Positions 18,033 to 64,000 of a stretch of 64,000 bases of DNA are shown one piece after another (the first letter of the stretch is position 1; each line of letters begins with the position of its first letter). The notes beneath the pieces were generated by a model. The model was not told the DNA's origin and searched no databases. It saw only the letters and a program-made list of their open reading frames with translations. The position numbers and the translations under genes were made by a program. This DNA comes from Azolla caroliniana (Eukaryota > Plantae > Polypodiophyta). The DNA lies in contig JBHGNT010000009.1 of NCBI GenBank assembly GCA_043228905.1, positions 20,398,001 through 20,462,000 on the forward strand. The letters are read 5' to 3'.

Positions 18033-18307
18033 AGAGTAATCGCCACAGTTGTACGTATCTCCATTCTTCAGCAGAAACGGGGGGAGAGAGAGAGTAATTT
18101 CTGAGAGAGAGAGAGAGAGATCACCACAGTAATATCTCCATTCTTCAGCAGAAACGGGGAGATGGAGAGAGAGAGAGAGAGGGTAGTTTCTGCTTCGACG
18201 ATGCTCACTTTGATCAGATCCGTTTCAAGAAAGCATGTACCTCGGACTAGCCATGGCGGAGAATAGCAGGGAAAGGAGGAGGAGGAGGAGGAGGAGGAAA
18301 AGAAGCT

Positions 18308-27495: not shown

Positions 27496-27645
27496 TCCCC
27501 ACATTCTCTCCTTATCTCCTCAGACATCATCATTACCTTACTTTAATCCCCATCTCTTGCCGTTTTAAGCATTTTCATTGCCCTGTTCGTCTCTGCACAT
27601 ATACAGGCTTAATCAATCAATTCGATCGTGAGTTCCGCCATTACC

Positions 27646-30600
27646 ATGCCTTTCATGACAGGCTCAGCTACAGCTACTGGCTGCGCCTCTTTCCTTCTTC
27701 CTCTCCCATCTCCTTCTGCTTCTGCTTCTTCTTCTTCTTCTCAATATGTTAGTAACAACAATTATGCAGGCCATAATGTTACCCAATGTGTTCTATTCCT
27801 TAATCCCCGACTTAATTCATCCCCAACCACCGTCAGGATTAACTACTCCTCTTCACCATCGCCGTCTTCTTCTTCTTCTTCTTCTTGTTCGTCTTCATGG
27901 ATGAATGCAATAGTAGTATCGGGGCTTATGAATCGGCAAGAATATATCAGACAAGACATTCATCCTGCGGTATCAGCTTCGGCTTCCAACTCTGCAAGAT
28001 CAGATCACAACAATTTGTTGAACATTAATAATAATTCAAATAGCCCCATGACAATGGTTCCTTCTCCTTCTCCATCTCCTCCTCCTCCTCCTTCTTCTTC
28101 TCCCCCCATCACCATCACAACCCTAGACCCCAGAGAACATCAATGTCACAAGAGCTCCAGGGCCTTCTATAAGACAGCTAATCTAGACAGCTTTAATGAT
28201 AATGTGGAAGCTGAGGCTATTGTAATCAGTGGAAATGATGATGAGAACATGGTCAACTACGACCTAAGCATCTCTACTGCTGTGTCTGCCGTCAATGGAT
28301 CTGTCATGAAGAATGTCCCGGTCAATGTTGGAGGCCATGGATGCCTCGATCCATCAGGCACCTCCTTCAAGGAGAAATTCCTGATACGATGCTACGAGGT
28401 CGGAATGAATGGCACCGCATCGCCTGAAACCATGGCCAATCTTCTCCAGGTACAATAACTTCCTCTTACATCTCGTCAACACACATAACAAGCATACATG
28501 CATGCATGCATGCCTGTTAGATAGATTGATATGTGCAATCCATGCATGCTTGCTTGAATAGATAGATGTGTGCAACGCATGCACAGAGACATAGATCTAT
28601 GTACAACTGGTTTTCTGTATCTGTGTCTTTAGTGTACCAATAGTTGCTTGTTCTTCTTTGTCGATACTAAAATTTAATCAAATGTAGATGGATGTGCTGC
28701 TCAATGCATGCACAGAAATTGTTCAAATGTAGATAAATGTGCTGCTTATTGCATGCACAGAAATTTTTCAAATGTAGATGGATGTGCTCAATGCATGCAC
28801 AGACACAAAAAAATGTTTATATTGGTTTTCTGTATATAAGCATATCACTAGTTGCTTGTCCTCCAATATGTATGCTTATTCATTCAAGCGTAGATCTATC
28901 CATTATAATTTTCTCCTCTGATTTTCAGGCCTCCATCCGTGTATTTTTTTTATCACTGTCTGTTTTGTGTATATATATCTATCTACACAATGTATGTGTG
29001 TGTACATACACAAAAATTCTCTTTTTTTTGTGACTACAGGAAGTTGCTTGCAACCATGCACAGAGTGTGGGGTTCTCGACAGATGGTTTTGCGACAACCA
29101 CCGCGATGCGCAAGAAGAGATTGATTTGGGTAACAACCAGAATGCACATTGAGGTCCTCCAATATCCTGTTTGGTAGGGTATTTCCATCACGTTTGAATT
29201 CAAAACCTTTTCTTTATTCAGTTTTGGATCATCATTTAAAACTCTAAAGATGGCAATAATTTGTAATATTAATGCTAGCTCCTTTTTAGCTTGGAACTCT
29301 CCAAGAGGTAAAATTCTCGTAAATGGAGAAAAGTTATGTGTACATTGAATGCCTCCTTGCAGTAAATTTTTTTGTCTCTTGAAGGCTTCATTAAACAAAA
29401 CAAAAAAAACCCTACTTGGGCGACTTTAAACTTTTCTCAATCTTTTTTAGCAATAATGTCAAAATATTGAATCTAAAAGTTATAATGATTTTTTGTATGG
29501 TAATTTTTTATCACTGAACTTATATGGAGATATGTGCCTTTTAGGTTACTTGAGTTTGCCCACTTGAATTTCTGTGCCCCATCTATGTTAAAATCCATTG
29601 CTCCCATACAAAAGACAAGCCGTGTCTTGCAATTGCTACCTATAAGAAATCTCAGTATTTGGCTTTGAAATCGATGATACCAAAAAAATTGAAATTTGTG
29701 TATGTGCATTGAAGTTCTGACAATTAAATTTCCTACTGCATGAAGGTATCTATTATATGCCTATATTTGTCTGTCTATTAACAAATATAAGACACTAGAT
29801 CTTGAGATGAGTTGTTAACTCTTATTTCTCCATGGACTCAGGGGTAATGCGCTCGAAATGGAGACATGGTGCCAGTGTGAAGGCAAAGCAGGCACACGAA
29901 GGGATTGGACAATTATAGACCTGGCAACCAACCAAATCGTTGGACGAGCAACTAGGTGTGACATATAGCTCTTCAAAGTTCCATCTCATGTTCATCAATC
30001 ATTTGTGCAACATACATAGACATAAGCATTTGGTGACTTCACTATTTAGTGTGTGCTCTTCTTTTTTTTGTTAATGTAGCACATGGGTAATGATGAACCA
30101 AGATACAAGACGTTTATCAAGAGTACCAGAGGATGTGCTCAATGAGCTATTACAATATTATCCTACCGAGCCAAGGTCATGTGGACCCAAGCCCCCATGT
30201 TTAATAAATCTCTCCTCAAAATTCAATCAAATTTTGGAAAGCTAATAGTATCAATGAAACTTATAAGAATAAATACAATTTGTTTTTAAATGCCTGAAAG
30301 GCTAAAGTTTATACATTGATATTACAGGTATGCATTTCCAGAGGAGAATAGCGTTAGCTTAAAGAAGATTCCAAAGTTGCAAGACCCTGCTCAACACATT
30401 CGATCTGGTCTCAAGGTAATTGTGCTCACTTGTTTAGTCTCTCATCAGGAAAAAGCTGCTCCACATCGAGCTTTTAGAAATTTTAAGCATGGTAAACCTT
30501 CTTTTTTCTACCTTTTGCATTTCGTGAAACTTTGAGCACATTATTTGAAATATTTTTTTCTTCATTTGGTTCTCTTAATTTCTCCTTACATATGATACAG

Positions 30601-31315
30601 CCAAGGCGTGGAGATCTCGACATGAATCGGCATGTGAACAATGTGACTTACATTGGTTGGGTTTTGGAGGTACAGTGTATCTGTGTCTCAAATCTCTTTT
30701 CCAACAAAACAAAGGAGATTTTGATATTTTGGGTTGTTATGATATGCATTGTGACTTTGATAGTTTTGGGATGTCAAAAAAAGCAATTATGTGTATTCTA
30801 TTCTGATTTGTTGCTTTATTTATGTATCAAAGTGCTTAAGTTTCTGAAAACAAGGTGTGTTTAGGTTAATTAATGCTATGGTTTGACATTTTTATTTCGA
30901 AGAATTGATATTTTGTGTTGTATGAAGAAAGTGTCTTGGATTAAAAAATATAAATGTTTTTGGTTAATGCAATGGCTTGATGTTTTTTATGTCAAAATAA
31001 TCATGTTTTTTGCACATGTTTTTGCAGAGTATTCCGCAAAATATACTCGAGACACACCAGTTACATACAATCACGCTAGATTATAGAAGGGAATGCAATT
31101 ACAATGATGTTGTGGAGTCATTTGCAAGTTTGGAAGGGCTAATGAATGGTGAAAGTGAAGGTTGCTTGAGCTCGAATGGTTGCGATTCAGATGATTTGGT
31201 GTTTTTGCATATTGTAAGGTTGGCAGGCTCTCATATCGAAATCAATAGGGCGAGGACAGTGTGGAGGGAAAAAGCTATCGAAAAATCTTCAAATGCTTCT
31301 TCCAATCATAACTAG
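27646..31315 (+). CDS. FATA: Plastid acyl-ACP thioesterase, FatA type; exons 27646-28449, 29040-29173, 29842-29955, 30080-30175, 30328-30415, 30601-30669, 31028-31315
   Basis: SFKEKFLIRCYEVGMNGTASPETMANLLQEVACNHAQSVGFSTDGFATTTAMRKKRLIWVTTRMHIE (FatA signature), DLDMNRHVNNVTYIGWVLE, ITLDYRREC; Ser-rich transit-peptide-like N-terminus. Exact start ATG uncertain. Confidence 0.93.
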
Positions 31316-33610
31316 AGGGGGGGCAGCCTTTTCACCATACATTTAACTTTTCGTTTCGATGCAAATTTCCGGTGAATAGCAGTGTTTTCATGTTCAACGA
31401 ATAGCACGGTTTTCCGATGGAAGAGAAAGAGAGAAAAAAAGGCAAATTCCGAAATGTCTTTTTTTTGCATGGATCTTATACCAAGTTGGGTGATTGTGAC
31501 ATAGAGTCCCTTTTTATTTAAGGACATAGAAAATAAAAGGGGGTTGGGGGGATCATTTTTTGTGGCCAAAAAAAGATAAGTAGCACTTTGAAAGGAATCC
31601 AATGAAAAAGAAGTTGGGTTTCATTTGAATATTGGTGAACTCGAGAGTTTATAAAAAAATATATATAGCCTTGGACAGAGATCGAAATCGGGTTTTCTCT
31701 CCAAGAAATGTAGGAAATATGGATGAGTATTACAGCATAATGTTATACTTCACAAATGATCAAATATATACACATATATATATAATTTTGCTTCTAGCCA
31801 TTGTGCGCTACAATACAATGTCTACAAACCTGGGCTATACAATTGTGTTGGGAATTGTTTGTATACCTCTTAAGAATGATTTTCATCCAACAACAATCTC
31901 ATTCATACTGACATGTATGATTTGGACACATGCACCCTTGATAATTATGTTTCTCTAAACGTTGTTTGAGTAGTATTTCAACTTCTTGATTTTTTTGTCG
32001 AGTTTGCAAAGCTTGATTTGTTTTGTTCTATCCCTAGGGCTTGGATTATGTCATTGATAGATTAGCCATAGGCTTTGAATTTATACCAAGATAGGCAGGA
32101 GACTTATTGCCCGACCATCTGTAATAGAGTGTCAATATTTCATATGCAGTTACAAAAAAATCATTATTGCCCTCTTCAAATGTGCAATTAATGATATACT
32201 TTAACATATGCAAGTGATAGTTGCAACATGTTAGAATTGAATATAACATGCTAGAACTAGATATGACTTTGCTCTTTTAACGTACAAGTGATATTCACAA
32301 CATGTTAGAAATATCACATGCAAGAATGGTTCACAACCATCCTTTACCCAAAAAAGGAAGAAAAATCAAAGGTCCCTTTAATGGCCATTTTCATGTTGCT
32401 TTAAAAGTTTTGTTCTCCCCAAGCATGAGCTTGAATTTTTTTGCAAGGTAGACGGCACCAATTTGATCACAATTTCTAGTATTTGAGTGAGTTTTGAATA
32501 TTGTGCACTGTTATGTTATTTTCATGCAATACCAAGCATGCAAAAAAGGTTGTGAGAGGAAGTAGTAAGCCTAAAATTGAGGGTAAAACTTTATGCAATT
32601 TCCTCGAGTAAAAACTAATTTGTAGTGTATTCTCATCTTGCATCTAGTCTTGCGCATGAGTTCCCTGACTACTGTTCCAAGCGAGGTTTCTAAGTAAAAC
32701 ACGTGTAATTTAATAGTCGGATATGGTCTTTATTTTCACTATTAAATTTGGTAGGCCATGATCTACATAGTGGGTACGCTTCTCCCTTCACATGTACTCC
32801 GCACTAGCATGCATTACGTACTTAATTTATTGTTTGTTTTCATTCAATCACGGTTCACCATGGATACAATCAAGAAGAGCATCGTATCTCAAGTCATCAC
32901 AATTGTATTTGTCTGAGTAAGAACAATCCTATTTGTAAGATTCAATACATTTATGTTAGGCATACCACTTCTATTCTGTATGTGTGTGTGTGTGTTTGTG
33001 TGTGTTGTAAAGGGGAGTCATGAACATATGTCATATTTCTACACAACAAATTCACGATTGTCATGCAATTAATAACACCCAAAATAAGTGAATTGATTAA
33101 ATTGGCAAGCTTCATTGGCAAAGATTAATTTAAACTAGTTTAGAGAAGGGATAAACAAATTGTACAATATGGCCCTACAAACATGCATATGCACGCACAT
33201 TTAGTTTTTATTTGGAATGTCGAATAAGTCAAATGACTCGTTTTTACTGAATAATGTTGGTGTGTTGTGGATATCTCTTTTTGGGAGGGGGTCAATTGAA
33301 AGTTTTCATAAGAGACATTTTTGAGACATTTTCCAATCAAACTGTAGCGAGCGAAAAGAATAATTCACAAATATTGGGCAACACGCCATTATGGTTCATG
33401 AATCATCCGGACATATAGTGTGAAAAGGGGGGACATAAATTGAGCAGCCAGTCAAACTAATAAGTCAAAAGTCTGTCAAGTCAAAAATGCATTGCTTCTC
33501 CTTCCAACTCCCCTTGAACATACCTATAAGTACACACTTCCATTTTCCTTCAAATTCACATACCCACTCTCATCTTTTGCCAAAAACACTTCTCTTTTCT
33601 TTCATTTAAT

Positions 33611-33646
<36 letters not shown>

Positions 33647-33721
33647 ATTGCAAAAAATTTCTTCTTGTGTGTGAGGCTTACACATTCTCTACCCATACTT
33701 AGATCTATTGGCTACTTGGCC

Positions 33722-34406
33722 ATGGCATCTTATACTCATTGCCTCTCCAACATCTCATTACTTAATAGTGCGCACCCTAACCCTAACTCTAACATTAATT
33801 CCCATGCTTTTTCTCCCATTCAATTAAGGTCCATGACCTCTAATGCTTTGAACCATAACCCTCATCCCCATACATCTCCCATCAATACACCATCCAAATT
33901 CTCCACCATCGCAAACCAGAATGCGAACACAACCCTCAACTTGAACCCGTACCCTCGTTTACGTGCATCTCCGACCCAGTGTGCCACCTCGACGTCACGT
34001 GCACTACAGATTAATACAACTAATGGTCATGAATTCTCAAATTATGGAGGGGAACCATCAATGAACGTGCAAGAGATGTATGTGTATGAGATTAATGAGA
34101 GGGATAGGGATAGCCCTGCATACCTCCCTCTTAGCCACAAAATTGGCTTCTCCAATGGATTTCGTCCCCATGGATCTTTGGGTGATTTGGTTCCTTTCAC
34201 AAACAAGGTTAGAGAAAGAGTCAATTCTTTCCTAAGCACTAGTACTCAATAGTTTTTTGAAACAGTTCTAGCTAGGAGTATTTATTTGTTTTTAATTCAT
34301 GCAAGCAAGGATCATTTATCATATGTCACATGGTGTGTCCCACACGCCATTAAATTTGTTCACACTCATTCTTATCCTCAAACTATTCACGTTTTAAAGG
34401 TTGTGT

Positions 34407-34449
<43 letters not shown>

Positions 34450-35445
34450 GTATTTGAAGCATTGAGTTTCTTGAAAAAGAACCCACTTTCCAAAAAACAA
34501 AAATGATGAATTTAGACTCCTTCATAACTAGAGAGTATAAGACTCAATGTCTTCTTGTTGTTTGCATTGCACCCAATTTCATGTAGAGTCATTGTCGTGA
34601 CAAAACTTGGACTTGTTGATTGTTGTAGCTCTACGATGGATCGTTGCAGACGAGGCTGGGGATCACTGCTGGTCTATGTGTCCTCATTAAGCACTACCCC
34701 GAGAAGGGTGGAGAACGCTACGAGGCAACATATAGCTTCTATTTTGGAGACTATGGCCACATCTCAGTTCAGGTATAGCATAGCAAATTATTGAGTGCAA
34801 TTCACCAATTTGATAATTCTATTTGATGCACATTCACCAAATTTAGGCATTTTGACACTTGGTGTGTTTTTTACGCCATTCCCATTTATGCATCTACATA
34901 CATTGGATGAGCACATGTAGCTAGGTGTGAAAGGGATCATGCCAAGCCCATGTGGAAAAGTGCTCACTTCCCTCATATTTCCAATAATGCACAAACTTTA
35001 TTATCATTTGTAGTCAACAATCCACATAGCAAGGCGCATATAATGGGGCCTAATGGATGGTCCATAGCTAGACATTCTTGAACTTGACAACCAAAACTTT
35101 GGCATGCGAGGTCATAGCTCAAGCATCACATGGAAAATATCTAGGTTTAATTTGGTTTTAACATTGAAATTGGATTGCTTCATGCAGGGTCCGTACCTAA
35201 CATTCGAGGATTCAAATCTAGCAGTGACGGGTGGATCAGGAATATTCACCGGGGTGTATGGCACAGTGCGATTGCATCAAATTGAATTCCCCTTCAAGAT
35301 CTTCTATTCCTTCTATCTACAAGGCATTCCCATGCTCCCAACAGAACTCACACGTGCACATGTTCCACCATCACAATCCATTAGGCCCTCCCTTGCTGCT
35401 AAGCATTGTCACCCAACAGCTACTGCTCCTAATTTCTCAGATTAA
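33722..35445 (+). CDS. AOC: Allene oxide cyclase (OPDA/jasmonate pathway); exons 33722-34207, 34629-34772, 35188-35445
   Basis: [20 protein letters not shown]...[33 protein letters not shown]...[66 protein letters not shown]; plastid transit-like N-terminus. Confidence 0.96.
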
Positions 35446-41870: not shown

Positions 41871-42442
41871 GGAGTGGTGGAGTGTTGATACTATTTATAT
41901 CCTTTAGGGATGGGGACCTAAGGAAGAATGCAACATATGAATGGTAGCTTGACGGTAGCTCAACATTCTTGTAATAACTGTTTATAACTAATGAAAGGAT
42001 ATTTTCCACGAAAAAAAGAGAAAAGAAAACACGTAAGTGATGTATTGTATGTTCATATGTATGTATGCATGCATGTACACGATGCATTGTATGTATGTGT
42101 GTGTAATGCACTCTATGTATGCAATGTAAGTATGTTATTTAAAGCAGAGTATGTATTGTAAGTGTGTGTGTGTGTGTGTCCGATGCATCGCATGTTGTGT
42201 GTGCGCTATTTCGTATTCTCGAATATTGAGAATATCACGCATGGAGAATATCACGAATGGGGCGCATGTGTCAATCTATGTATGTATGTATGTATGTATG
42301 TATGTATCATGTATGTGTCTGATGGCCCAACTGTATTTTGGCAGTTAAAGAGAATGCATACCTCTGTCTTAAGCTTTTCTAGGGTTTTGTTCTCTTCTTC
42401 TTCTTCTTCTTCTTCTTCTTCCTCCTCTCTGTTGATGCTTCC

Positions 42443-44375
42443 ATGACGCGTATATACTTCAAACCGCAGACCTGCTCTGTGCGTAACCCTAAAATCAGCC
42501 GAAAGCAAGGCCCCACGAAGAAGCTGCAATCCGATGATGCTTCTTCATTTAACATACCACACAGTGATTGGAGAACTCAGTTAGACCCCGATGCCATCGA
42601 ACAGATTGCTGATGGCCTTGAGAAGATGGTCCTCTCTTGGACTCACCCATCTGCACCTGATTCTAAAACTTACCCTAAACTTCAAACTAACTCTAATGAA
42701 GACGTTTCTGCAGTTCTTCCAGAAACGAACACAGACGCTAACCCTAACTTCTCCTCGGGTATGGATCATAACATTCCCTCTAATGTGAACCCTAACCTTA
42801 AAATTACAAACCTTTACCATAACCATAACCATAACCCTAATTATAACCCCGATCATACCCCTGACCCAGACCCTAACTCTAACTCTAACTCTAACTCTAA
42901 CTCTAACCCTAACTCCAAATGTAATCCCAATCCTGACATTAACCCCAACCATAACCCTGATCATGACCATAAAGCTGATTCTAGCCAAAATCCTAACCCT
43001 GATTCTAACCAAGATGCTAAGCATAAGCATAGCCCTGATTTTAACCGAAACCCTAACCTTCACTGCACTCCTAGTTATAGCACTAACCAAAATTCTAACC
43101 ATAACCCGACACCTATACCAGTCTTAATCGAGTCTAGTGAACCTTCAGACATAACCTTGAATATAGTTCCAACTGCATCTTCTAATATTAGCTTACCGGT
43201 GACATCTATGGCACCTGCTCTGGATGAGATGATGAGAGGCGAGCTTATCAAGAGCTGTAGGCCGTCCATGACAAGTGCACAATCTTCCATTGCCGATCAA
43301 CAAAGCGCAGAGGCGAGCTTTTGGTACCTCTCTCCAGCCAAATCGTTACCGTATTGCATCGCAAATGGCCTCGGAAATGTAGAAGAATGTAAGCTGATTC
43401 CGGAACCTTCTTTCCACCATGGAGGTGCCTTTACCCCCTTGCAGCTCACAGGTAGCAATTTTGACAGGATAGATCCTCATCAACATCTTCAATGTACTAG
43501 TATGCAAGAGAATACATTAAATCATTCTCTTCCCAACCATAGCTATGGACATAGCCAAAATGGAGGTCACCCTCATCGGAAAGGACCACGCATCCGTAGT
43601 ATCGAAGAAGGAGAAGAAGATGAAGGAGATGGCAATTCTGACAATGATGATAATCTCCAAGACATGAGACAAGAGAATCCTATGTTGTCGGAGAGGGTTT
43701 CTTACCACATTAAAACAGCTGGAACCAGCCATTGGAGTGAAAGCATAGAGGTAAATGGTAAGGGTTTTCTCCCAAATCTACACTATTGCTATCTCATCTT
43801 TTTGATGCATCCCTTTTTTATCCTTATGGAGGCAATGCATTTGTGTTTTAAAAGTGATTCATTTCATGAAATGTTTGCAATGGAGATTCTGGCACTGTGA
43901 TTTAGCTTTATGTGCATTGCCACTAAGCTACATACATAAAGCATTACTAGTTCCAATCATGGAGCAGAGGTGTATATGCTCATCCTAATGTTGTTTTCTG
44001 CGCATTACTATCGGCAGGCGGAAATCGTATCCATGAGATACTCGAGAAGAAGCTCACCTCAGCACAAAGCGACTGCCATCGATCTCCTTATCCCCAAGCT
44101 CTACAGGTCATCTTGTGTGTTTTCGATCTTCGAACATATTCCCATGCTCAATAATCTTGCAAAACCTGAAACCCAATCAGTCACAATGGATTTTCTAACA
44201 CTTCCTTCATACAATCATTCTCTCAGGGAGAGGAAAAATGTGGTGTTTACAAGAAGAAGGTCGAAGAGCTTCAGATTGCCCTGCTAGAATGTGCTATGGA
44301 ATATGAAGTCAAGGTGTGTCATCCCTTGAACAGATTGCAGTCACCATATGTGTATGTGTATGTATATGTATATGT

Positions 44376-46470: not shown

Positions 46471-48320
46471 TTCCACTCCATCAAACCACATGACGCAACT
46501 TCTTGCTTGATCCTTGAAATAGACAAATTCTATGCAATTTATTGTAAGATATATGCAATATTATTGGATTTGCTTGTCATTGTTACATTTCCAAATGAGA
46601 TGTATCATGGTTCAAATTGAAGCATAATGGAAGTTTCTCCCTCTCTCTCATTAGTGGACCTGGAAGCCACTTTTATTTTATTTTATTTTCGATGATTGGG
46701 TGCACATCCTGTCATTGTATCATTTGTCTCCTGGGCCAATTTTGGTTTTAGAAGATGTTAATATCTCTCTCTCTCTCATACAAACATATGATTTCTCTTG
46801 AGTAGATGGAGCCGATAATTACATTGTGTCCAATCATCACCAGTGTAAAATAAAGTGGAAAGTGAAATTGCAATTTGCAAATTCATAATGTTGTGTTTAA
46901 AAGCAAATTGTTAGGTTACATAATCTCAAACTGAAACTACAAGAAGCTTTACAATGAAATCCAACATCAAGTCAACTAATTCCTCAAGACTTGAACCTCC
47001 ACCATCAAGCTTGCAAAACCCCTATATGTCTCCTATATTTGATTGCTTTGTGGAAGTTATCCTTGAAAAATACATTTTTTGAGTTAAAGGGAGATGTCCA
47101 ACAATCATTTAGAAAAAAATCATAGTTCCGCTTAATGACCAATGTTTTGAAATCCACCGCATTGATCAAATTAAGAAATTATGCAATCTATCCCATGTAG
47201 GAACACAATTGTTGCAAGCTTGAGAGAACTAACCTTTATGAGCACCAAGACCCACTTGATATGGAGCGTGGAAGTACATCCTTTCCTTTACGCCTAGCAA
47301 TGAAGTTTCAGGGACAATGCATAACTTGTTCATGTTCATAAAAAAATTGTCTAATAATGTAGATTTGAAGTTAGGCCCACAAAGTAATGTATATTAAGTT
47401 ATGTTTATCCAGTTCATTGAAAGATATTTTGTTTATCTTGGATGGCAACGCCAAATGTTGAACCATCACAATGTTGTAAGTTACCTTATTGGTGTTGATG
47501 TGTCACCCTATTAATACAAGCAATAATTCGTGTGATTTCTTATTTTTAGTCATCATTGTCTAATTGATTAGATGTCCAATAGACATTATGGAAGATAAAT
47601 CGAGACTAGACAATGGAGCCTTAAGAGGGAGCAACCTTATTGAATTTGACAAATCCTATGGTCACGTAAAGTTTCAACCTCTTAAAAGAAAAATGTATGT
47701 GCGTAGGAACTTATCATTGGGTGGAGAGAATAGAAATAGGTTGGCCATTTACTTATTGTATGTAAACACAAGGATTGAAGCCTCATGATGGCAAGTTGTT
47801 GATATCGTTTAAAATTTCAAGTCTAGTTTGGTGCTCTCATGGCAACAAAGTTTCGACAACGTTTAAAGTACATATTTCTCCAATGAAGAAAAGTTATTCA
47901 TGTTCTCATTCACAAATCTTTTTGAATGTCAAAAAAGACGTTGTCAAGCTCAAGTCTAATGATAGTATGGTGAAATTTTAAGTTTAGCTTCGCATTTGTA
48001 CCCGAATCTTACTTTAGTCCATCAGATTGGGAGTAGTGCCACCCAAGTTTTCGTATATGTCTTAGATAGGATCATATTTGCGCTCATTACTTGCTTTGCC
48101 CTATTCGTGTGGCTTGGCCCCCCATCCCCCCCTTTCCAGAATTGGTGGCAGACGAAAGAGACCGATCATTCTAGGAAGCATATAAAAGAAAAAGCCATAC
48201 TCTCAATGATCACCCATGGCCAGGCTGGTTGGTGTGGAGTATAGTCTTGTGAGCCGGTGGCCATGGGGTGGCACCACCACCATCACTAGGTGACCAAGGT
48301 TTGTGTGTCTGGGATTCTAC

Positions 48321-48639
48321 TAGGAGTCAACACTGGCTCAACTCAAGCCTAAACTGAACAGTTAAAACGTTTTAAATGGTTTGGCAGTTCGATTCGGTTG
48401 CCTTTGGCTTGAGCGTCCTTAACTGGTTTGAGCTCAGTTTGGGGTGGCTCAAGCCCGAACCGAACCGTTATGGTCTAAATCGTTTCCCAAAACCATTAAA
48501 GGCTTAATCGGCTTGGACAAACCGGTTAGGAGCTGGTTCGGTTCAAGTTGGAAAACTCCCAAACAGGTTAAGGCGTAACCGGTTTGGTTTGGACTAGGCC
48601 AAACCGGTTACGCGGAAACCGAACCATTGCCGATTCCTA
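48321..48639. mobile_element. hAT-like MITE with AACCG-rich repeats, related to 23219-23580
   Basis: Right end reads TAGGAATCGGCAA on the minus strand (cf. TAACAATCGGCAA); left end TAGGAGTCAACA; many AACCG/CGGTT motifs; TSD not clean. Confidence 0.55.
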
Positions 48640-48663
48640 GATGCCTAAATTTTCAAAATTCAA

Positions 48664-51600
48664 ATGGTTTGGAAAGAGAACAGAAACCTGTGTGTATCCA
48701 TGGCCATGGCCATGGCGGACCTTCCTCCTCTGTCTTCTTCTTCTTCTTCTTCTTCTTCCCCACAGTTCCCATCTGTCTGCTGTGCCCACTGCGAGCTCTC
48801 CCCTGCCACAGAGTTCTGCCGAGACGAATCTCTCCCTTACTGCTCCCCCTGCTCCTCCTCCCTCCACTCCAAGAAGGCCAGAGCTCACCACATCCTCATG
48901 CCCCTTCGTGTCTGCGACCAGTGCGAGAAATCCCCTGCCTCCTTAACATGCTCTCTGTGTGGTGGATCCGGAGAACCTCTCGCCTTCTGCGCTCCCTGTT
49001 CGTCTCATCTTCATTCAAGAAAAGCTCGGTCTCATCATCAACTTGTCGCCATATCCATTACTGGTAAGAGGAACTTCACTTCTACTTCTGATTCTCTTCT
49101 GCCATTAAACATGGAGGAGGGGGTTACTGATTTTCCTCCCTCGACTGGTCTCTATCCAGGGAATCTTGGCCAGGGTAGGAAGCAGGATGGATCTGATATT
49201 TGTGGTGATGATGACGAGGAGCATAAACAGGGATCTATCAGAAACCCCAAACGAGAGGATGAGAAATCCTCATTGAATCGTCTTCATGAATCAAAGAGAA
49301 GTAAAAAAAGTAAAGAAGAAATGAAAGAAGAAGAGAACAGCAAAGGACAAAGAAAACCTTTGGTGGACTGTCAGCCACTTTTTCTGCAGGACACCAAGAA
49401 GAAGAAGAACAACAACAACAATCATGATAAAGAAAAAAAGAACGATATTGCAAAGAAGAAAAAACAGGACCACAAGAAAGATAAAGAGAAGAAGAAGGCA
49501 GTGAAGGGAGAATATCTGAACAACGATATTAAACAGGAGAGTACCAGTCCCATGCAATCTGGTGGAAGTCTAACAAGTCCTGTCTTAACAAATGTTCAGA
49601 ATCAAGAGACTATCTATCTTAGCGATGATTCAAGCAGTGATAGTGCGCATGATGCTAGCAATGCCAAGAAAAAGGAGAAGCAAAAGAGTGAAGAATACCT
49701 GAATAACGATAGAGATGCTAATAAAGAAAATGCTTCTATTGTTGGATGTCATAGAGCAAACCCTAATAGCAGGGTCTTGAGGAGTGCACACAATCAACGT
49801 GCTCATTATCTTAGTGAGGAATTGAGTGCTGCAAGTGATGATGACTCGATCAGTGAGAGTGAGAGTGAGAGTAATCATGACACTAGTGATGATGATGAGA
49901 CCTATGGCACCAAAAAATACCACAAAGGTTCTGTCACTCTCGAGGCATTTGTGGTGAATGTGGAAGCTGAGGAAGAAGGGAATATCAGAAGAGGTACTAT
50001 TAAGTTTTTACTTACTCCTTGTTAATATACATTCTGTATTGTTTATTGCTAACAAACTTCTTTCTTGTTTATTTGACATAAGAAATTCAAAATATTTTTT
50101 TGGCTACAAAGCTTCTTTCTTATTAATTTCACTGAAAAGGATATATTCTAGCCATACAAAAAGAGCCCACTTTCCCTCAAGTTTCCTGACACTAGGTTCC
50201 TGAAGACAATGAGGCTATAGAGGATATCCACCATTTTTCCGTACAATTTTCAACAATACGAGCTTTTCTAGACAAGGCTCGACATGCCTGGCTAGATGTC
50301 AACCATTTTCTGTGTGGGAAAGAGCTTATGTTTCTCTGTATGCTGAGCTTCAATAGGCGACCTTCTGAACTATGGGGGATGATAGTCATCTTACCCTTTG
50401 GGAAGAACCCACCTCCCCCCATGTTTACTCACAATGTTGAACATTAGTAGCTTTTGCAGGCAAGGATCACATATACCTGGCTAGGTGATGGTGAGGGTTA
50501 GAAGGCTTCTCAGCCATTTTTAGGGGTCAACTACCTGTATGTTTCCCTAGAATGTTTAAACATCATGAGCAAGGCAGTGTACCTAACTAGGTGTGGTGCG
50601 ACATGGCTGGGGGTCAGGGGTCTTAATCTGGGTTGTGGATGACAGGAAAATTGTCTTAAGATTTCTTGTGAATCTGAATCATGCTGAAGGATTGTGAATA
50701 TGAAGAATCATGAATAATGAGCTTGTAATTCAGGTTCTTGTGCGGAAAATCAAGTTGAAGAAGGTGTCCATGGAAGGATAAGGAAAATGCTGGAGCTTGG
50801 GTTGCACCCAGACACTCCTGACTTTGAAGCACAACAAGCCTTGAAAAATGCACAACGGCTCCTCACAAAACACAACCTACAACAGGTCACCTATGTGCTT
50901 TTCACTTAAAAGTCTGAAATCTGGCCTCATTTTGTCAAGAAAATATTAGTATATTGCTATGCTCATTGTTCAATGCTGTTGGGAGAGCCGTTATATTTGC
51001 ACTACATAACATATGAGCCTGGTTCTGATTTCCTGGAATTATTCTGTTGAGACATTCATCATATAACATTGCTAGATGTATGTCATGATAAGTTAATGTT
51101 TATTTCCAAACTTTCAGGCAGACGTACTGAAAGGAGACTTAGAGAACAATAAAAATGCGTTCGAAGGAGGAATGCGGATTGTGGACCTTCGATCTAAAGA
51201 CAAAAAACGTGCAGGATGTGTTGCTCATTGGCTCTACAGCTTAGCTCAAACTGTTGCTGAATACTTCGATACCCAATATTTTGTTCAGAAACGATCCACT
51301 ATTCAGGTTTTGGACCATTACTGATACAAGTATTAGCTTTGTTTCTTTCTCCTGTGAGAAATGATCAAGCTTTGCTCTAATGCAAAATTTATAAGCATTT
51401 AACTTCAAATGTGTCCAAATTATTGAGGAAACCTTCAAAAATACCCTCAATTCTTTTTTAGATGAGGGGAAATAAAAAGAAACTCAGGACTATTTGGGAG
51501 TTTTCCTTTGATTATTTACTATTTATCCGGTTTCGGAAGCATTTGTCAACACTGATTAGGTCTCATAGGACGCCATTCTGGCCTTGAGTAGATGTTAATC

Positions 51601-52263
51601 CAATTTCCTCTCTTTGCACTTGTGCAGATTGTGTTCTATGGAATCAAGCAAAATGTCGATTGTGCTGCCTATGCATTTGCAGCAACATTTAATCGAATCT
51701 CAAAGCTTTCTGCTGACTTTGTACCTACAAAGATGATGAAATCTGGTCAGGGTAAGGCTAATTCTAGTTCTTCTCAGAGTGTACATAGCAGAGTATCAAG
51801 AATGAGCTACAGAACTGGCCTTGTCGAGGGTTTGTTTGAGACAGTGAAAGCCTCAAAAAAGCAGCATCCCGAGACTAAGAAGAAATCTTGTGGTAGGAAA
51901 GAACAGAATGCTGAACTAGATTATACCAAGGGTTTAGAGAATAGAGAAGGCACAGGATGTGACAACTCTGAAGAAGAAACTTTTCCTTTGTGTAGTGAAG
52001 ATTCGGATGATGAGAATGTGAACAAGCCTCATAGCAGTTCAAAGGTATGGGAGAAAGAGAACGAAACTGCAATCACAGCTCTTGTGGTACACTCCAAGAA
52101 AGTTGCTGAAGATTTTCTCAAGGAAATGAAGGTGAAAGTGAGGACAAGAAAGCATAGCAATCCTATCATCTGGGATGGAGAAGCTTTTAGGAAAGGCAAG
52201 AAGGATTCAAAGACTATAGACATAGGGCAAAAAGCTCTCACAAGGAAAGCCAAGAGGGCTTGA
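48664..52263 (+). CDS. Tandem B-box zinc finger + low-complexity linker + DUF2786-type (with DUF7168-like C-terminal) protein; exons 48664-49993, 50734-50885, 51118-51306, 51628-52263
   Basis: B-boxes CAHC...C...CSPCSSSLHSKKARAHH and CDQC...CSLC...CAPCSSHLHSRKARSHH; spliced C-terminal half RIRKMLELGLHPDTPDFEAQQALKNAQRLLTKHNLQQADVL...WLYSLAQTVAEYFDTQYF...IVFYGIKQNVDCAAYAF...RMSYRTGLVEGL...DGEAFRKGKKDSKTIDI; phases consistent. The start may be one of the Mets at ~48700-48712. Confidence 0.8.
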
Positions 52264-53954
52264 ACATGATTCTTTTCAAATAGAAAATGAATTCAGATTG
52301 GGATTACTTGATGCATTCCCTATATGATATGGGATCACAGAGAAATGTAAGATCATTCAGCGTTTTGTATTGGATTTGTTTTTTGGTGTTTATGGAGGCT
52401 GTGTTTGTGCTAAGTTAATGCTCTCTTATGGGGTTTGTAAATATATATTGACGAATGCTGAGGTGATGCATTGCTAGCAAGACTACCATTGGAGGCTTGG
52501 TGCTTGTGCTAGGTTTGTAGATAATATATATTGGTGGATGCTGAGGTGATGCATTACTAGGAGCGAGATATTCTTAGTATCTGTACCAGATTGGGGATAT
52601 GTTGGGAGTCGTTGTATTGTGGATGGAGAACACATTGTTTATCGTGATGCTGGGTATTTATATATGCAATGGAAAAGATTGTTGAACATGGGGTGATTGT
52701 ATGCTGCATTGCTTGCATTTCACAAAGTTATGTGACATAACCATTAGGACCCCATATTCAATTCATGATGTTGTAAGGGTTTGAGTTTGTAAGCAAGATG
52801 CTCGTGCAATTGTTGTAGCAAATGTTTTATTAGTTGCAATGGACATTACCCACTTGATAGATGTCATTTGAAATTTGGTATTCATTCATGGGCATTATGA
52901 AAGATCTTATGGAGATTGATAAAGTATCATGTATGTAATATGCAAATAGCAAATATTAGTGTGACGTGTCTAATACAATTGTACCATTATAGGCTATAGG
53001 CAGGATCCAAAAGATGAACGACGAGTAAGTATAAGGCTGCTTCATTAAATGTGAATTGAGATTGATGAGTATGTTGATGGGATTTTATTATGAGAAGGAT
53101 GAATTGATGCAAAATTCATTTGGTAGCAATACTTGAAATGGTGATGCACTGCCATGAATATGATGATGATTCTCACACATGAATGAAGGTTACTCCCAAA
53201 TGCCCATTCTAGGAAATTAAGAACCACAATTTCGAAGCGAAAAATAAATAAATGGCATTGTATGTGAAAACTATCTAGCTAGTTATGCTTAATACTGTTG
53301 CTTGAGTAGCTATTAAATTGCGTGTGGAGAGTTGGAGAAAGCCAGCAAAGCCAATCAATGGCATGTGTGTCATTCATCCAACCATATAATTTTGCCTGGC
53401 ATCAATCAATGACATAACTCGAGGCCAGAATCAGATCGAAAGATGGTGTTTCAAAATATTTCGAGCAAATTACTTAATATTAGTATGTTGTTGGAACCAC
53501 GTTTTAATAGGTATCTTGATACTTGAAAGTTTATGATTCTAAAACATCTCAGCTAACTAAGCAAGTAGGTTATGCCTTCCATATCCATATTTAAACTTGA
53601 TTTCAAATAGATGTCTAAGAGTTTCATTACCTATCCCCCTCCCCTGCTTTCATCCATGAGAGCCCATGATCTGAATCTCTCGGGCAAATTTAAACTCTTG
53701 GGTTTTCTCCGATCCTGCGCACCCGTGCAGTCTCTGAGCTTATCCTTTTGCTTCAATTGGGAAGAACCCACAATCCATGTAAACGCAGATAGGTTCCCAT
53801 CCTCGGCGGTCTACTGATTCTTCACAATTCATGTATTAGATGATGAGATCCCAAACGATGAAACTTCCAATTAAATGAGATGATCCTTGACCTAGAGCCT
53901 TGGTGAAACCACGAGTACAACTTTCTGGCAAACTCTAGACTCAAGTACCTAACA

Positions 53955-59605: not shown

Positions 59606-59979
59606 TGTAATAACATATGTGAGATGTAATCATAATAATTATATGTTTAGTTATTACGAGATATTTAGAACATTCTAGATTATTCTAGAATGTTCTTGAA
59701 TATTTCATGATTATATTTATTATTATTATTATTCATAAATATCTAAAATATTCTAGAACATTCTAGAATACTCCATAAGGGCCTATAAATAAGAGTCCAT
59801 ACACTCATCACAACTCATTCGGTTCAAACTGTCGTGACTCTTGAGTAGGAAGCAGAGAGAGAGTGATGGCGATAGAGATAACGATAACGATAGAGATTGA
59901 ACCGAATATTTCTTTTCCCTTTCTCCAATAACCCTAGCAAGCTTTCTTCTTTATCCTTCTTTCTTTTTCCCCCGCGGTT

Positions 59980-61107
59980 ATGGAGTCGGTCAGCAAGCAA
60001 GAGTATATGCGTGTCCTTTCGGAGCTCGATATGCTCACCACTAAGTTTGTGGCATTAGAGCAAGAAAATCAAAGGCTACTCGGGGATCTTCAACAAGTCA
60101 GTACTGAGAAAGCTCATCAATATGAGGAGTTATCACAACGGGTTCATCAACTTGAGGCTACTATATTAACATTACGAGAACAAGCGGCGGGGGTTCAAAA
60201 CTCCCCAAGGGAACCAAAGATTAGCCTCCCTGCCAAGTTTGATGGTACCAGATCTCTCTTTCGAGGTTTCCTGAATCAAGTTCGTTTGGTGATTCAGTTA
60301 CATCCCAATCGGTATCCAACTGATGCTGCCCGTGTGGGATTAATAGGAACCTTGCTAAGCGGTACAGCGTTAGCATGGTTCGCACCACTTCTTGAGAAGA
60401 AATCACCATTACTGGAGGATTTCGAGGCATTCGTTAAGGAGTTTCAAGCTAGTTTTGGAGATACGGATAGCACTAGGACTGCAATAAACAAGATTCGAAG
60501 ACTCCGACAAGGAGATCGTCCCGCTTCAGCTTATGCCGCAGATTTCCGTCTCTTGGCATGCGACATCCCTTGGGATGAGGCAGCCTTAATGGATCAATTC
60601 CGTCAGGGTTTGCGTAACGATGTCAAAGATCTTCTTCTTACTTTCCATGAAGATCCAAAGTCTCTTACTGAAGCTATTAGCCGAGCTGTGCGATGTGATA
60701 ATCGCCTATTTGAGCGACGTTCTGAACGTCAACAAATGTTACGCCGCCAACCGGAACAGACATACGCTTCTATAGTCGCCACACCGCCACAAGGTTCTAG
60801 ACCCGTTACGAGGGATGGTCCCACTCCGATGGAAATAGAGTCGACACAACGTCGAGGGCCCTTATCAGATGCTGAGAAACAACGACGTCGGGCGCATCGC
60901 CTATGCCTCTACTGTGGTGGTCCAGGACATATAGCTGTGAATTGTCCACATAAACCCAGGCGTCAAGTTTACCAAGTAAGTGCACATGACAACCCTACAT
61001 CAAGTTCTACTATCACTTCTAATAACTTAAGTACTAAGCCTAATAGCCCATGCCATGAGAATAGATTTGATGTCTTGAGCCAATTAGAGGATGTGTTAAA
61101 CGAATAA
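59980..61107 (+). CDS. gag: Gag (PEG10/RTL-like capsid, CCHC zinc knuckle)
   Basis: EPKISLPAKFDGTRSLFRGFLNQ, LRQGDRPASAYAADFR, GPTPMEI, CLYCGGPGHIAVNC. Confidence 0.93.
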   Translation: MESVSKQEYMRVLSELDMLTTKFVALEQENQRLLGDLQQVSTEKAHQYEELSQRVHQLEATILTLREQAAGVQNSPREPKISLPAKFDGTRSLFRGFLNQVRLVIQLHPNRYPTDAARVGLIGTLLSGTALAWFAPLLEKKSPLLEDFEAFVKEFQASFGDTDSTRTAINKIRRLRQGDRPASAYAADFRLLACDIPWDEAALMDQFRQGLRNDVKDLLLTFHEDPKSLTEAISRAVRCDNRLFERRSERQQMLRRQPEQTYASIVATPPQGSRPVTRDGPTPMEIESTQRRGPLSDAEKQRRRAHRLCLYCGGPGHIAVNCPHKPRRQVYQVSAHDNPTSSSTITSNNLSTKPNSPCHENRFDVLSQLEDVLNE

Positions 61108-64000
61108 GTCCGGCCAAAATAGGAGCCATTTGGTTGGACCATCCTAGTTATGTAGAGTCAGTACCTAGTTGTGGTTCCATTTCATCAAATCAAGTTAGTA
61201 GAGTTTTTTCTGCACAAGTCGAGCTTAGCACATCTACAGGTCATCGCGCCCTAGCCTCTGCCCTCCTAGATTCCGGAGCCAATTCTTGTTTCATGGATCG
61301 CGAGTTTGCATTGACTCAAAACATCATCTTGAAAAAACTCCCAAACCCAGTAGCTGTAGGAGTCATCGATGGTCGCCCTATAGCATCAGGAGATATAGTC
61401 GAAGAGTCTGAACCAATTCGTGTAGTCCTAGGTAATTTGGCTAGTGTCATCTCATTTAACATCATTAGTAGTCCGGAGCACTCTCTAGTTCTTGGTCTTC
61501 CTTGGTTTGAGTTACATAACCCAACCATTGATTGGAGAAAAAGAACTATTGAAGAGGTCACCGTACAATCCAAGTCTCTTGAAGCTCCAACTAAGGATCT
61601 AGGATCCCCCACAATTTCAACAATCTCTATACATCAATTACGAGAGGATGGAAGAAAGGAAGACATGATGGTATTTGCGGTTTTAGCAACTCCCTCATCT
61701 AGCTCACAAGAATTGGGGGTCCAACTACCAAAGAAGTACATAGAATTCTCCGATGTGTTCGATAAGGTGAAGGCTAATAGACTACCAGAGCATCGACCAT
61801 ATGATTGCCCAATTGATTTGCAGCCAGGAAAAGAGCCTCCATGGGGACCAATTTATAATCTTTCGCCCACGGAGTTAGAGGTTCTTCGAGAATATATCAA
61901 TGAGAACTTGGCAAATGGTTTTATCCAACATTCAAAATCTCCTGCTGGTGCACCCATCTTTTTCGTTAAGAAGAAAGATGGTACGCTTCGTATGGTCGTG
62001 GATTATCGAGGCTTGAATAAAGTGACCGTTAGAAACCGATATGCTCTCCCATTGATCTCAAGCCTTCTAGAACGCCTCAGTGAAGCAAAGTATTTCACGA
62101 AGTTAGATCTTCGAGGTGCCTACAACCTTGTTCGAATTCGTCCTGGGGATGAATGGAAGACGGCGTTCCGCACTCGCTATGGTCATTTTGAGTACACAGT
62201 GATGCCTTTTGGCCTCACGAATGCACCAGCAGTCTTCCAACATATGGCGAATGATATTTTTCGAGACTTCCTCGATATCTTCATCATTGTTTACCTGGAT
62301 GATATCTTGATCTACTCAAAAACTCAAGAAGAACATGATATACATGTTCGCCAAGTTTTGCAACGGCTACGAGAGTATGGTCTCTATGCAAAATTGGAGA
62401 AGTGTAGTTTCGACCAATGTCAAGTGGAGTTTTTGGGGTACATAGTCTCTTCAAATGGAATCTCTATGGATCCATCAAAGGTTCAAACAATTTTGGATTG
62501 GCAAACACCACAGTCCGTGCGAGATGTGCAATGTTTTTTGGGGTTCGCAAACTTTTATCGCAAGTTCATCAAAGATTATTCAAAAATTGTGTTGCCCCTC
62601 ACTCAACTGACGCACAAGAATCGACCATTTGTATGGAGTATAGATGCGAACTCTGCATTTGAGGGTTTAAAGCAAGCATTTACATCCGCACCAATCTTAA
62701 TCCATGTCGATCCAATGAGGCGCTTTATACTTGAAGCTGATGCATCGGATTTCGCACTCGGAAGTGTACTATCCCAAATTGGTGATGATGATGAACTGCA
62801 CCCGGTGGCTTTTCACTCACGAAAATTTGAAGCCGCAGAAATCAACTATGAGATTCACGACAAAGAGCTTCTTGCCATTGTGGATTCTTTTCAACAATGG
62901 CGTCATTTTCTGGAGGGTTCTTCTCAGCAGATTATTGTCTACAATGATCATAAAAATCTAACATACTTTCAAAGTGCTCGAGTCTTGAATCGACGACAAG
63001 CTCGTTGGGCGCAGTTCTTAACTCGTTTCGATTTTGTAATTCTATATCGCCCTGGGATGCAACAAGGAAAAGCAGATGCTTTATCTAGACGTTCGTATAT
63101 GGAACTTCAACCTGGAGAGGCCGCATTTGAAAGCCAAAAGCAAATCCTCTTAGGTCCTGATCGTCTACGAATAATGGCAATGCATACCATCAACACACCG
63201 GGAGATTCAAGGCTTCTTGATTCCATTCGTGAGCAGATTGCGACTGATGCGTTCGCCCAAGAGGTTTTGAGCCATATTATCCCAAATCGTGCATCTAGCT
63301 CCCAAACTCAAAATCCTCGTCTAGACTACACCCAGTTTAGTTGGCATGATGGGTTACTTTTTCGACAAACTCTCTTGTATGTGCCTGACGGTCCTTCTCG
63401 ACTCAAAGTCATGCAACAATGTCATGACACACCAATGGCGGGACACTTCGGCATCCACAAGACTTTTGAGTTGATTTCTCGCCGATATTGGTGGCCACGG
63501 CTTCGCCATTTTGTTACGGATTATGTTCGTAGCTGTGATACATGTTGCCGATCAAAAAAGCCTCGACATCATCCATATGGCTTATTACAGCCAATGCCTA
63601 TTCCGGAGAGCCCATGGAAATCTATTTCCTTGGACTTTATTACGGATCTTCCACCTTCCAAGGGATTTGATTCGATTCTCACGGTTGTCGATCGTTTTAC
63701 GAAGATGGCACATTTCCTTCCATGCACAAAGACCATTACTAGTCAAGAGACAGCTGATTTACTCATGCGGGAGGTGTTTCGCCATCATGGTCTTCCGGAT
63801 GATATTATCAGTGATCGGGGTCCCCAATTCATCTCGAAATTTTGGCGGCACATGTTCAAACTCTTACAACTTCTTGTAAACTCTCTTCCGGCTACCATCC
63901 AGAGACTAATGGGCAGAGTGAGCGCACCAACCAAACAGTCGAGCAATATCTACGTTGTTTTGTCAACTATCAACAAGATGATTGGGTGGATTTACTTCCT
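61095..64000 (+). CDS. pol: Pol (protease-RT-RNase H-integrase) in the -1 frame relative to gag; frameshift near 63869
   Basis: [13 protein letters not shown] (61260), [57 protein letters not shown], integrase HHCC and SDRGPQF; no stop seen before the window end. Confidence 0.92.

Follow-up and report, generated by a model that had tools for sequence, protein, structure and literature searches.

We analysed a 64,000-nucleotide (nt) stretch of Azolla caroliniana contig JBHGNT010000009.1, referred to below as the window, in whose numbering all coordinates are given. Its forward strand carries a gene in which two tandem B-boxes are joined to a DUF2786-DUF7168 module. We tentatively read this as a single-copy, five-exon member of an old land-plant family of B-box+DUF2786-DUF7168 proteins, whose product is likely to be nuclear and to serve as a non-enzymatic adaptor, with predicted binding to RNA or single-stranded DNA (ssDNA); to this reading as a whole we give a little less than even confidence. 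The architecture, new but assembled from a known, uncharacterised family and an atypical B-box, would be an old and conserved one that surveys of plant BBX genes overlook and that flowering plants have apparently lost. The fusion is undescribed in the literature that we found, although its orthologues are already annotated automatically in databases: UniRef entries from Adiantum and Riccia called 'B box-type domain-containing protein' are the same proteins, with both DUFs precomputed, and no study, name or function for these orthologues was found in the literature. Nor did literature searches find a description of a B-box/DUF2786 fusion or any use of DUF7168 or PF10979 by name; in the available parts of the sources that name DUF2786, it occurs in table rows only.

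Gene structure and B-box subtype

The original prediction, made from the letters of this stretch, had joined the B-box frame to three downstream exons across junctions 49993/50734, 50885/51118 and 51306/51628. Each junction is GT-AG and in frame, and the three together are the sole stop-free combination found near those coordinates. The sequencing runs consulted come from relatives of the window organism rather than the same individual (pieces mostly 90-99% alike), and are flagged as RNA by a guess, none being on record as such; only joints and spans were used from them. Spliced contigs of these relatives join exactly at the predicted sites, at two junctions in run X2 and at all three in X4, X5, X6 and X13, while the introns are retained in contigs of X9, which is probably a DNA run. 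Contig 3 of X5 (2649 nt) is a single spliced piece spanning 48767-52450 unbroken, and thus places the B-boxes and the module on one transcript, as had been proposed; the two also occur together in a Pteridium transcript open reading frame, P0001. A spliced contig running from the B-boxes to the 3' untranslated region (UTR) rules out two separate genes, and contamination is ruled out by the introns, the large contig and the plant neighbours.

The proposed exon layout had missed an extra in-frame, 96-nt GT-AG intron at 49064-49159, spliced out in X1, X4 and X6, so that the gene has five exons. In X5 and X13 this intron appears as an 84-nt skip; we infer that it is the same 96-nt intron, shifted because those relatives have a 12-nt insertion close by. 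The protein has 724 amino acids (aa) when counted from the ATG at 48700; the start codon is not fixed, with in-frame ATGs at 48664, 48700, 48706 and 48712. DUF2786 and DUF7168 were each matched once in the 523-Mb genome, and a probe with a divergent fern paralogue found nothing beyond the window locus in this genome. The parts of the gene are as follows.

48700..49063, + strand: exon 1, a Ser run and two B-boxes; coding from ATG 48700, with alternative ATGs (contigs of relatives)
48781..48891, + strand: B-box 1, ligands C-C-C-E-C-C-H-H (from sequence)
48913..49038, + strand: B-box 2, ligands C-C-C-C-C-C-H-H, with a 5-residue insert relative to CONSTANS (from sequence)
49064..49159, + strand: intron 1, 96 nt, in frame, GT-AG (joint in X1, X4 and X6)
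49160..49993, + strand: exon 2, low-complexity K/E/D/S linker with Lys runs, an acidic tract and a conserved strand
49933..49956, + strand: conserved beta-strand motif of the TLEAFVV type ahead of DUF2786 (strand E8-13 of the P0008 model)
49994..50733, + strand: intron 2, 740 nt, phase 1 (splice sites and contigs)
50734..50885, + strand: exon 3, DUF2786 helical hairpin at 50766-50885 (PF10979, 38.3 bits)
50886..51117, + strand: intron 3, 232 nt, phase 0 (splice sites and contigs)
51118..51306, + strand: exon 4, first half of DUF7168 with a strand, basic loop, conserved Trp, helix and strand (PF23771)
51307..51627, + strand: intron 4, 321 nt, phase 0, directly before IVFYG (splice sites and contigs)
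51628..52263, + strand: exon 5, remainder of DUF7168, long helices, an acidic insert, C-terminal helices, a basic tail and the stop
52264..52450, + strand: 3' UTR, at least to 52450 (X5 and X6 contigs)

The two downstream domains are what the original prediction took them for, both scoring above their Pfam cut-offs: DUF2786 (PF10979) gives 38.3 bits against 23.9 on 50736-50885, and DUF7168 (PF23771) 48.7 bits against 25.5 on the last exon, downstream of DUF2786, with positions 9-45 of PF23771 matching exon 4 (E 0.0026). At the N-terminus the expected zf-B_box (PF00643) reaches 17-20.6 bits, under its cut-off of 24.1, and ANCHR-like_BBOX 27.7 against 27 on the N-terminal 139 aa. The two B-boxes are nonetheless true B-boxes, because the profile and the model, the latter resting on a 15-row alignment, both find their best match in the tandem B-boxes of CONSTANS/COL2 (7vsq, 7wsj and 7vsp; E 2.6e-6; Z 8.3, root-mean-square deviation (rmsd) 5.8, 88 aligned residues).

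Like the plant BBX/CONSTANS proteins of groups I-V, the window protein has two tandem N-terminal B-boxes, a disordered middle and a folded C-terminal domain. It lies outside those five groups, as had been suspected, in carrying DUF2786 and DUF7168 in place of a CCT domain, and it is only 33-35% identical to the nearest COL genes in this genome. Each box has eight conserved candidate zinc ligands, the fourth being Glu in box 1 and Cys in box 2. The C-x2-C-D-x3-H end of the BBX signature C-x2-D-x4-C-x2-C-D-x3-H occurs in 0 of 28 fused boxes, versus all 17 distinct BBX boxes at this genome's scan loci (the C-x2-D part is present in 16 of the 17), and fused and BBX boxes fall on separate sides of a tree (support 95; 44 columns only). 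Judged by these sequence features, the fused B-boxes are a separate subtype.

Surveys of BBX genes overlook this gene because its B-boxes score under the Pfam cut-off. PF00643 gave at most 20.7 bits among the 21 relatives scanned, and a scan of the genome with it listed 24 places, the window gene not among them. According to its main text, a recent preprint on BBX evolution (10.1101/2025.09.03.673946) screens with SMART and PF00643 and resolves five groups; the string 'DUF' is absent from that main text. Another (10.1101/2025.11.10.687525) recognises six BBX genes in Marchantia, which fall into four of the five groups, and depicts them with no domains other than B-box and CCT.

Distribution and origin of the fusion

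Relatives were collected by three word-based protein searches, which returned 4 of 564, 22 of 885 and 39 of 7990 scored candidates, and by a profile search of 1.84 billion representatives, which gave 858 matches at E<=0.001, 150 of them listed. Names were looked up for 20 of 140 new relatives and comprised three Adiantum and one Chara, the rest being 'hypothetical' or nameless. Both B-boxes and the module are present in Pteridium, two Adiantum species, Ginkgo, Cryptomeria, Taxus, Marchantia paleacea, two Riccia species and Calypogeia; the Ceratopteris gene model is partial and lacks the B-boxes. No named angiosperm, moss, lycophyte or hornwort was among the relatives found by the word-based and profile searches. 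The proposal that the module is patchily retained is supported; its restriction to non-seed plants is not, given the fusion in Ginkgo, Cryptomeria and Taxus. Angiosperms fill public databases, so their blank indicates loss, whereas for mosses, lycophytes and hornworts it means only that none was found; on these database sequences, a loss of the fusion in angiosperms appears well supported. The low-copy orthologues in Marchantia paleacea and Ceratopteris belong to genera used for knockouts. We rejected a connection with flagellated sperm, given that the gene is retained in conifers, whose sperm is non-motile, and that none of the named relatives was a moss.

Across liverworts, ferns and gymnosperms the hairpin sequence hardly varies; identity between the window module and the liverwort and gymnosperm modules is 41-45%. 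P0039, a fragment of the last exon, lies at about the same distance from each of the three lineages. Cryptomeria has several copies of the gene. Adiantum has a second, fast-evolving paralogue (P0041, P0057, P0141, P0159 and P0163, comprising Adiantum and others) in which the B-boxes are intact, the linker is much longer and the module has degenerated, with DUF2786 no longer detected; none was found in the Azolla genome. The 828-aa Riccia sorocarpa protein P0175 carries PF02325 as an additional precomputed domain; a merged gene model might account for it.

The module without B-boxes is found in a Chara gene model, in the cryptophytes Baffinella and Guillardia, in fungi including Mycena and in many eukaryote-like proteins, and the nearest Atlas clusters are 86-100% eukaryotic (scores 0.89-0.90), which serves as a lead only. 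The original prediction had called the module prokaryote- or fungal-type, a label that finds no support, the module being widespread in eukaryotes and its closest non-plant relatives eukaryotic. These non-plant proteins (Mycena, Ascomycota clusters, Baffinella, Guillardia, Chara and the Tudor-, SAM- and ubiquitin-like fusions) share the upstream strand, acidic linker and basic tail with the plant family; unlike it, none has a B-box, and they have other adaptors or none instead. All of the 13 proteins, among 164, that show the B-box pattern belong to the land-plant group.

Among 65 relatives scanned, a Tudor domain (PTM/DIR17-like) scored above its Pfam cut-off in three, with two more Tudor relatives listed by search; the other domains were one SAM, one kinase and one weak PB1. 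The Tudor fusions P0025, P0176, P0177, P0060 and P0068 fall in two separate parts of the tree, which suggests, from domain calls and tree positions, that Tudor, a possible chromatin reader, may have been recruited repeatedly. Many non-plant members (the P0027-P0115 group; P0019, P0020 and P0089) start with a domain of about 75 residues that is ubiquitin-like by eye, KHA- or PB1-like. No Pfam family matches it above cut-off, and it might represent a family not yet modelled. A profile search with this N-terminus was dominated by acidic linkers and gave weak matches only. In P0155, which falls in the fungal clade, one stretch resembles a chromodomain by eye, with no Pfam match at E 0.005.

A quick mixture-model tree was built from 72 of 174 modules, 102 being left out as redundant or long-branched, and a second tree from 174 rows, 24 of 198 sequences being too partial for inclusion. 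In the 72-row tree, land plants occupy one side of a branch (Shimodaira-Hasegawa-like approximate likelihood ratio test 95) within which ferns (100), gymnosperms (100) and liverworts (99) form groups, and the window gene is placed among the ferns, outside Pteridium, Adiantum and Ceratopteris; the 174-row tree agrees on the land-plant group (84). Because the land plants form one group with lineage subgroups, the fusion would predate the split between liverworts and vascular plants and have been inherited vertically, a conclusion to which the trees lend good support. Vertical inheritance across green plants, which the original prediction had set against its own reading, largely applies within land plants but does not extend to green plants as a whole, the Chara model having the module and no B-box.

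For the module itself, old eukaryotic inheritance fits best. Both free trees put the plants beside the Tudor-bearing, cryptophyte and Chara rows (84-94). Compared with Tudor-bearing and cryptophyte proteins, the plant module reaches 82-164 bits; compared with ten named proteins of phages and plasmids, it reaches 13-26 bits. The strand upstream of DUF2786 is present in 118 of 147 aligned rows, of eukaryote type, and was not seen in the prokaryotic proteins examined; a hairpin His common to eukaryote-type rows is missing from most of those prokaryotic proteins. A cryptophyte-like metagenomic contig has an apparent 37-40-nt phase-0 intron at the intron 4 site, at which the Taxus model also breaks off; this sharing is weak because another cryptophyte-like locus has no intron there. 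The module would appear, with good support from these comparisons, to come from an older eukaryotic pool related to phage, integrative and conjugative element (ICE) and plasmid proteins, making it part of a long-standing family of eukaryotes that has kin among prokaryotes.

Several observations weigh against this history. With 8-11 prokaryotic rows in the trees and tests, approximately unbiased (AU) tests on 41 rows reject neither land plants with prokaryotes as one side (p 0.30) nor ferns with prokaryotes (p 0.13), so that a horizontal origin in an early eukaryote or in the land-plant ancestor is compatible with the tests. The bacterial-looking P0122, similar to clusters from bacteria and phages, reaches 88 bits with the plant module, more than Chara (69) or Mycena (55); the Chara copy has a long branch and no firm placement; the prokaryotic sample comprises 10-11 proteins only; and the label 'eukaryotic' for most non-plant relatives is inferred from length, linkers and domains. 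The AU value for land plants, the score of P0122 and the loosely placed Chara copy would also fit an ancestor of land plants that acquired the module straight from a bacterium or phage, separately from other eukaryotes, and gained its B-boxes and introns afterwards. The upstream strand, the hairpin His, the two free trees and, weakly, the shared intron 4 position speak against that course. So does a search of 185,579 prokaryotic species genomes with plant-type patterns (A2), in which no relative was confirmed, such narrow patterns reaching close relatives only; the same limit applies to a search of prokaryotic genomes with a P0122 pattern and to searches of viral contigs with patterns from A3, P0122, P0112 and P0026, in which no locus was confirmed. 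We consider a direct transfer of this kind quite improbable. The horizontal acquisition originally envisaged fares worst in its recent, fern-specific or non-seed-plant-specific form: the AU value for ferns with prokaryotes leaves room for it, but liverworts and gymnosperms share the two-B-box fusion with the same unusual ligands and have modules as similar to that of the window as noted above, and the flanking genes are ordinary plant nuclear genes. The shared fusion largely refutes it, and its probability seems close to negligible.

Prokaryotic kin, predicted fold and possible function

The prokaryotic relatives are mostly on phages, ICEs and plasmids. Proteins of PHROG 421 (Bacillus phage AR9 g005, SPI-7-type ICE and Mu-like members) have the same two domains in the same order, the same conserved Glu, Trp, Phe, FxG and YxxG positions and a matching predicted fold (E 1e-10), and P0001 matches PHROG 421 at E 3.6e-23; they differ in being mostly 220-250 aa long and starting at DUF2786, without the upstream strand, B-boxes, linker or introns. 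Several prokaryotic copies are surrounded by replication or early genes. In ten prokaryotic neighbourhoods that we read, the module gene lies directly after dnaB and parB in two SPI-7-type ICE loci, between a dprA-like gene and dnaB in phage AR9, in the early operon of one Mu-like prophage, and near ardC, a toprim gene and topB on a Listeria innocua plasmid. In phage Dp-1 (L014:3983-4654) the DUF2786 frame is open for 223 codons, the annotated gp34 starting at 4082 and so dropping the hairpin; a Tpt1/KptA-family gene lies directly upstream.

Structural insight came from a model of the relative P0008, not of the window protein itself (147-row alignment; predicted local distance difference test score 82.6, predicted template modelling score 0.74). 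It consists of an N-terminal strand, the two-helix DUF2786 hairpin, a strand-loop-helix-strand-strand-helix domain and long helices. Searched against BFVD it gave 28 matches at E<=0.001, the best at 1e-10 and several named DUF2786. No solved structure reaches Z 8 against it; Foldseek found no module match among solved structures at E<=0.001, sequence comparison with solved structures no match (best E 1.4), and NCBIfam nothing. Most top ranks among solved structures are type I KH domains (Z up to 7.0, rmsd 3.5, 80 aligned residues). Like Nova-2 KH3 (1ec6) and MEX-3C KH2 (5wwx), the module as modelled has a three-stranded sheet and helices in similar order. Type I KH domains are defined by a conserved GxxG loop between two helices; the P0008 model has a single helix between strands 1 and 2 where KH has two, and a loop where KH has helix 1 and GxxG. 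In the 12 positions before the conserved Trp, basic residues average 3.8 in plants and 3.2 in other non-prokaryotic proteins, with about 2 expected, and plant modules have a median net charge of +12. Conserved columns are mostly aromatic, Gly or small, and mostly structural. The main conserved polar residues (His424, Glu431, Asn447, Arg571 and Asp706 in five-exon numbering) form no recognised motif, and HExxH occurs in only 2 of 174 modules.

These features are consistent with an adaptor that works as follows. The Lys runs at about 49397-49500 in exon 2, which by eye resemble a nuclear localisation signal, might import the protein into the nucleus; the KH-like alpha/beta domain might bind RNA or ssDNA through its basic loop, aided by the basic tail; and the B-boxes could cluster the module or dock it on partners, much as one study reports an oligomeric role for the B-boxes of CONSTANS in clustering its CCT domain (PMC11132886). 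The nuclear regulator of the original prediction would accordingly be plausible. Tudor, SAM or ubiquitin-like domains may play the B-box's adaptor part in other eukaryotes. Nucleic-acid binding has to be set against several results. The domains of AspRS, EutL and phosphoglucosamine mutase score as well as KH (6.7-7.1), unrelated folds thus tying with it; the KH matches show 8-16% identity and stay under Z 8, a range in which, the tool cautions, a match may reflect no more than a common arrangement; a GxxG is found in only 4 of the 19 plant rows and in none of the 135 other or 10 prokaryotic ones; the prokaryotic proteins have no basic-loop enrichment (2.2 versus 1.9 expected); the other five of the ten neighbourhoods show no clear common theme; and a tested function for any family member was not found in the literature.

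Other roles would fit parts of the same evidence. The hairpin might act like the N-terminal domain of Sgt2/SGTA in a scaffold for protein quality control, with the B-boxes linking it to the ubiquitin machinery. It does match Sgt2/SGTA dimerisation domains (Z 5.2-6.3), one of them complexed with the Get5 ubiquitin-like domain, and the ubiquitin-like N-terminus of many non-plant relatives gives weak matches to residues 790-863 at the C-terminus of the AKT1 channel (E 0.017-0.8), which we take to be its KHA domain, and to PB1 (E 0.0011). Helical hairpins reach such Z values by chance, however, no plant member has the ubiquitin-like domain, and the plant module is net basic; we regard this role as fairly unlikely. 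A defence factor had also been suggested. Such a protein could guard the genome against viruses or mobile elements and would have been domesticated from proteins of mobile elements; the mobile-element setting of the prokaryotic relatives, the patchy distribution, the degenerate Adiantum paralogues, the several Cryptomeria copies and the repeated swapping of adaptors across eukaryotes would suit it. Yet none of the PADLOC families matched four relatives at E<=0.01, the gene is single-copy in this genome, its hairpin is nearly invariant from liverworts to conifers, unlike arms-race genes, and no toxic or catalytic motif was seen. The suggestion is left without support, and we think it improbable.

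Set beside the nuclear adaptor that we tentatively favour, a bolder version of it can be formulated, about which we are doubtful. A phage/ICE-type nucleic-acid-binding module would have been domesticated early in eukaryotes and repeatedly given adaptors for clustering or for reading chromatin (Tudor, SAM, ubiquitin-like or B-box); in land plants it would constitute a sixth, so far unrecognised class of B-box protein, distinguished by a B-box subtype of its own and by a nucleic-acid-binding domain other than CCT, serving as a nuclear regulator from liverworts to conifers and lost in flowering plants. The plant gene offers a possible genetic handle on the large DUF2786/DUF7168 family of phages, ICEs, fungi and algae, and its function, once found, would inform the phage and fungal members.

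Surroundings of the gene

A dispersed repeat lies just outside the coding gene.

48320..48640, strand not assigned: MITE-like dispersed repeat, about 320 bp, outside the coding gene; loose contig ends

It has at least 40 other places in the genome at 73-80% identity (40 scored of 855 candidates), and is tentatively labelled as resembling a miniature inverted-repeat transposable element (MITE). It stops roughly 60 bp short of the probable start codon and could contribute to the promoter or 5' UTR, or interfere with either.

Five of 12 neighbouring frames scanned had a family. They include two ordinary plant genes, for acyl-ACP thioesterase and allene oxide cyclase (27613-30861 and 33530-35442), and a Ty3/gypsy retrotransposon with long open gag and pol frames at 59938-63998. 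Remnants resembling long interspersed nuclear elements are visible by eye at about 10.7-14.3 kb. Two long open frames, at 18251-20368 (706 aa) and 42383-43897 (505 aa), had no Pfam match at E 0.001, and the second carries NP/NH-type repeats.

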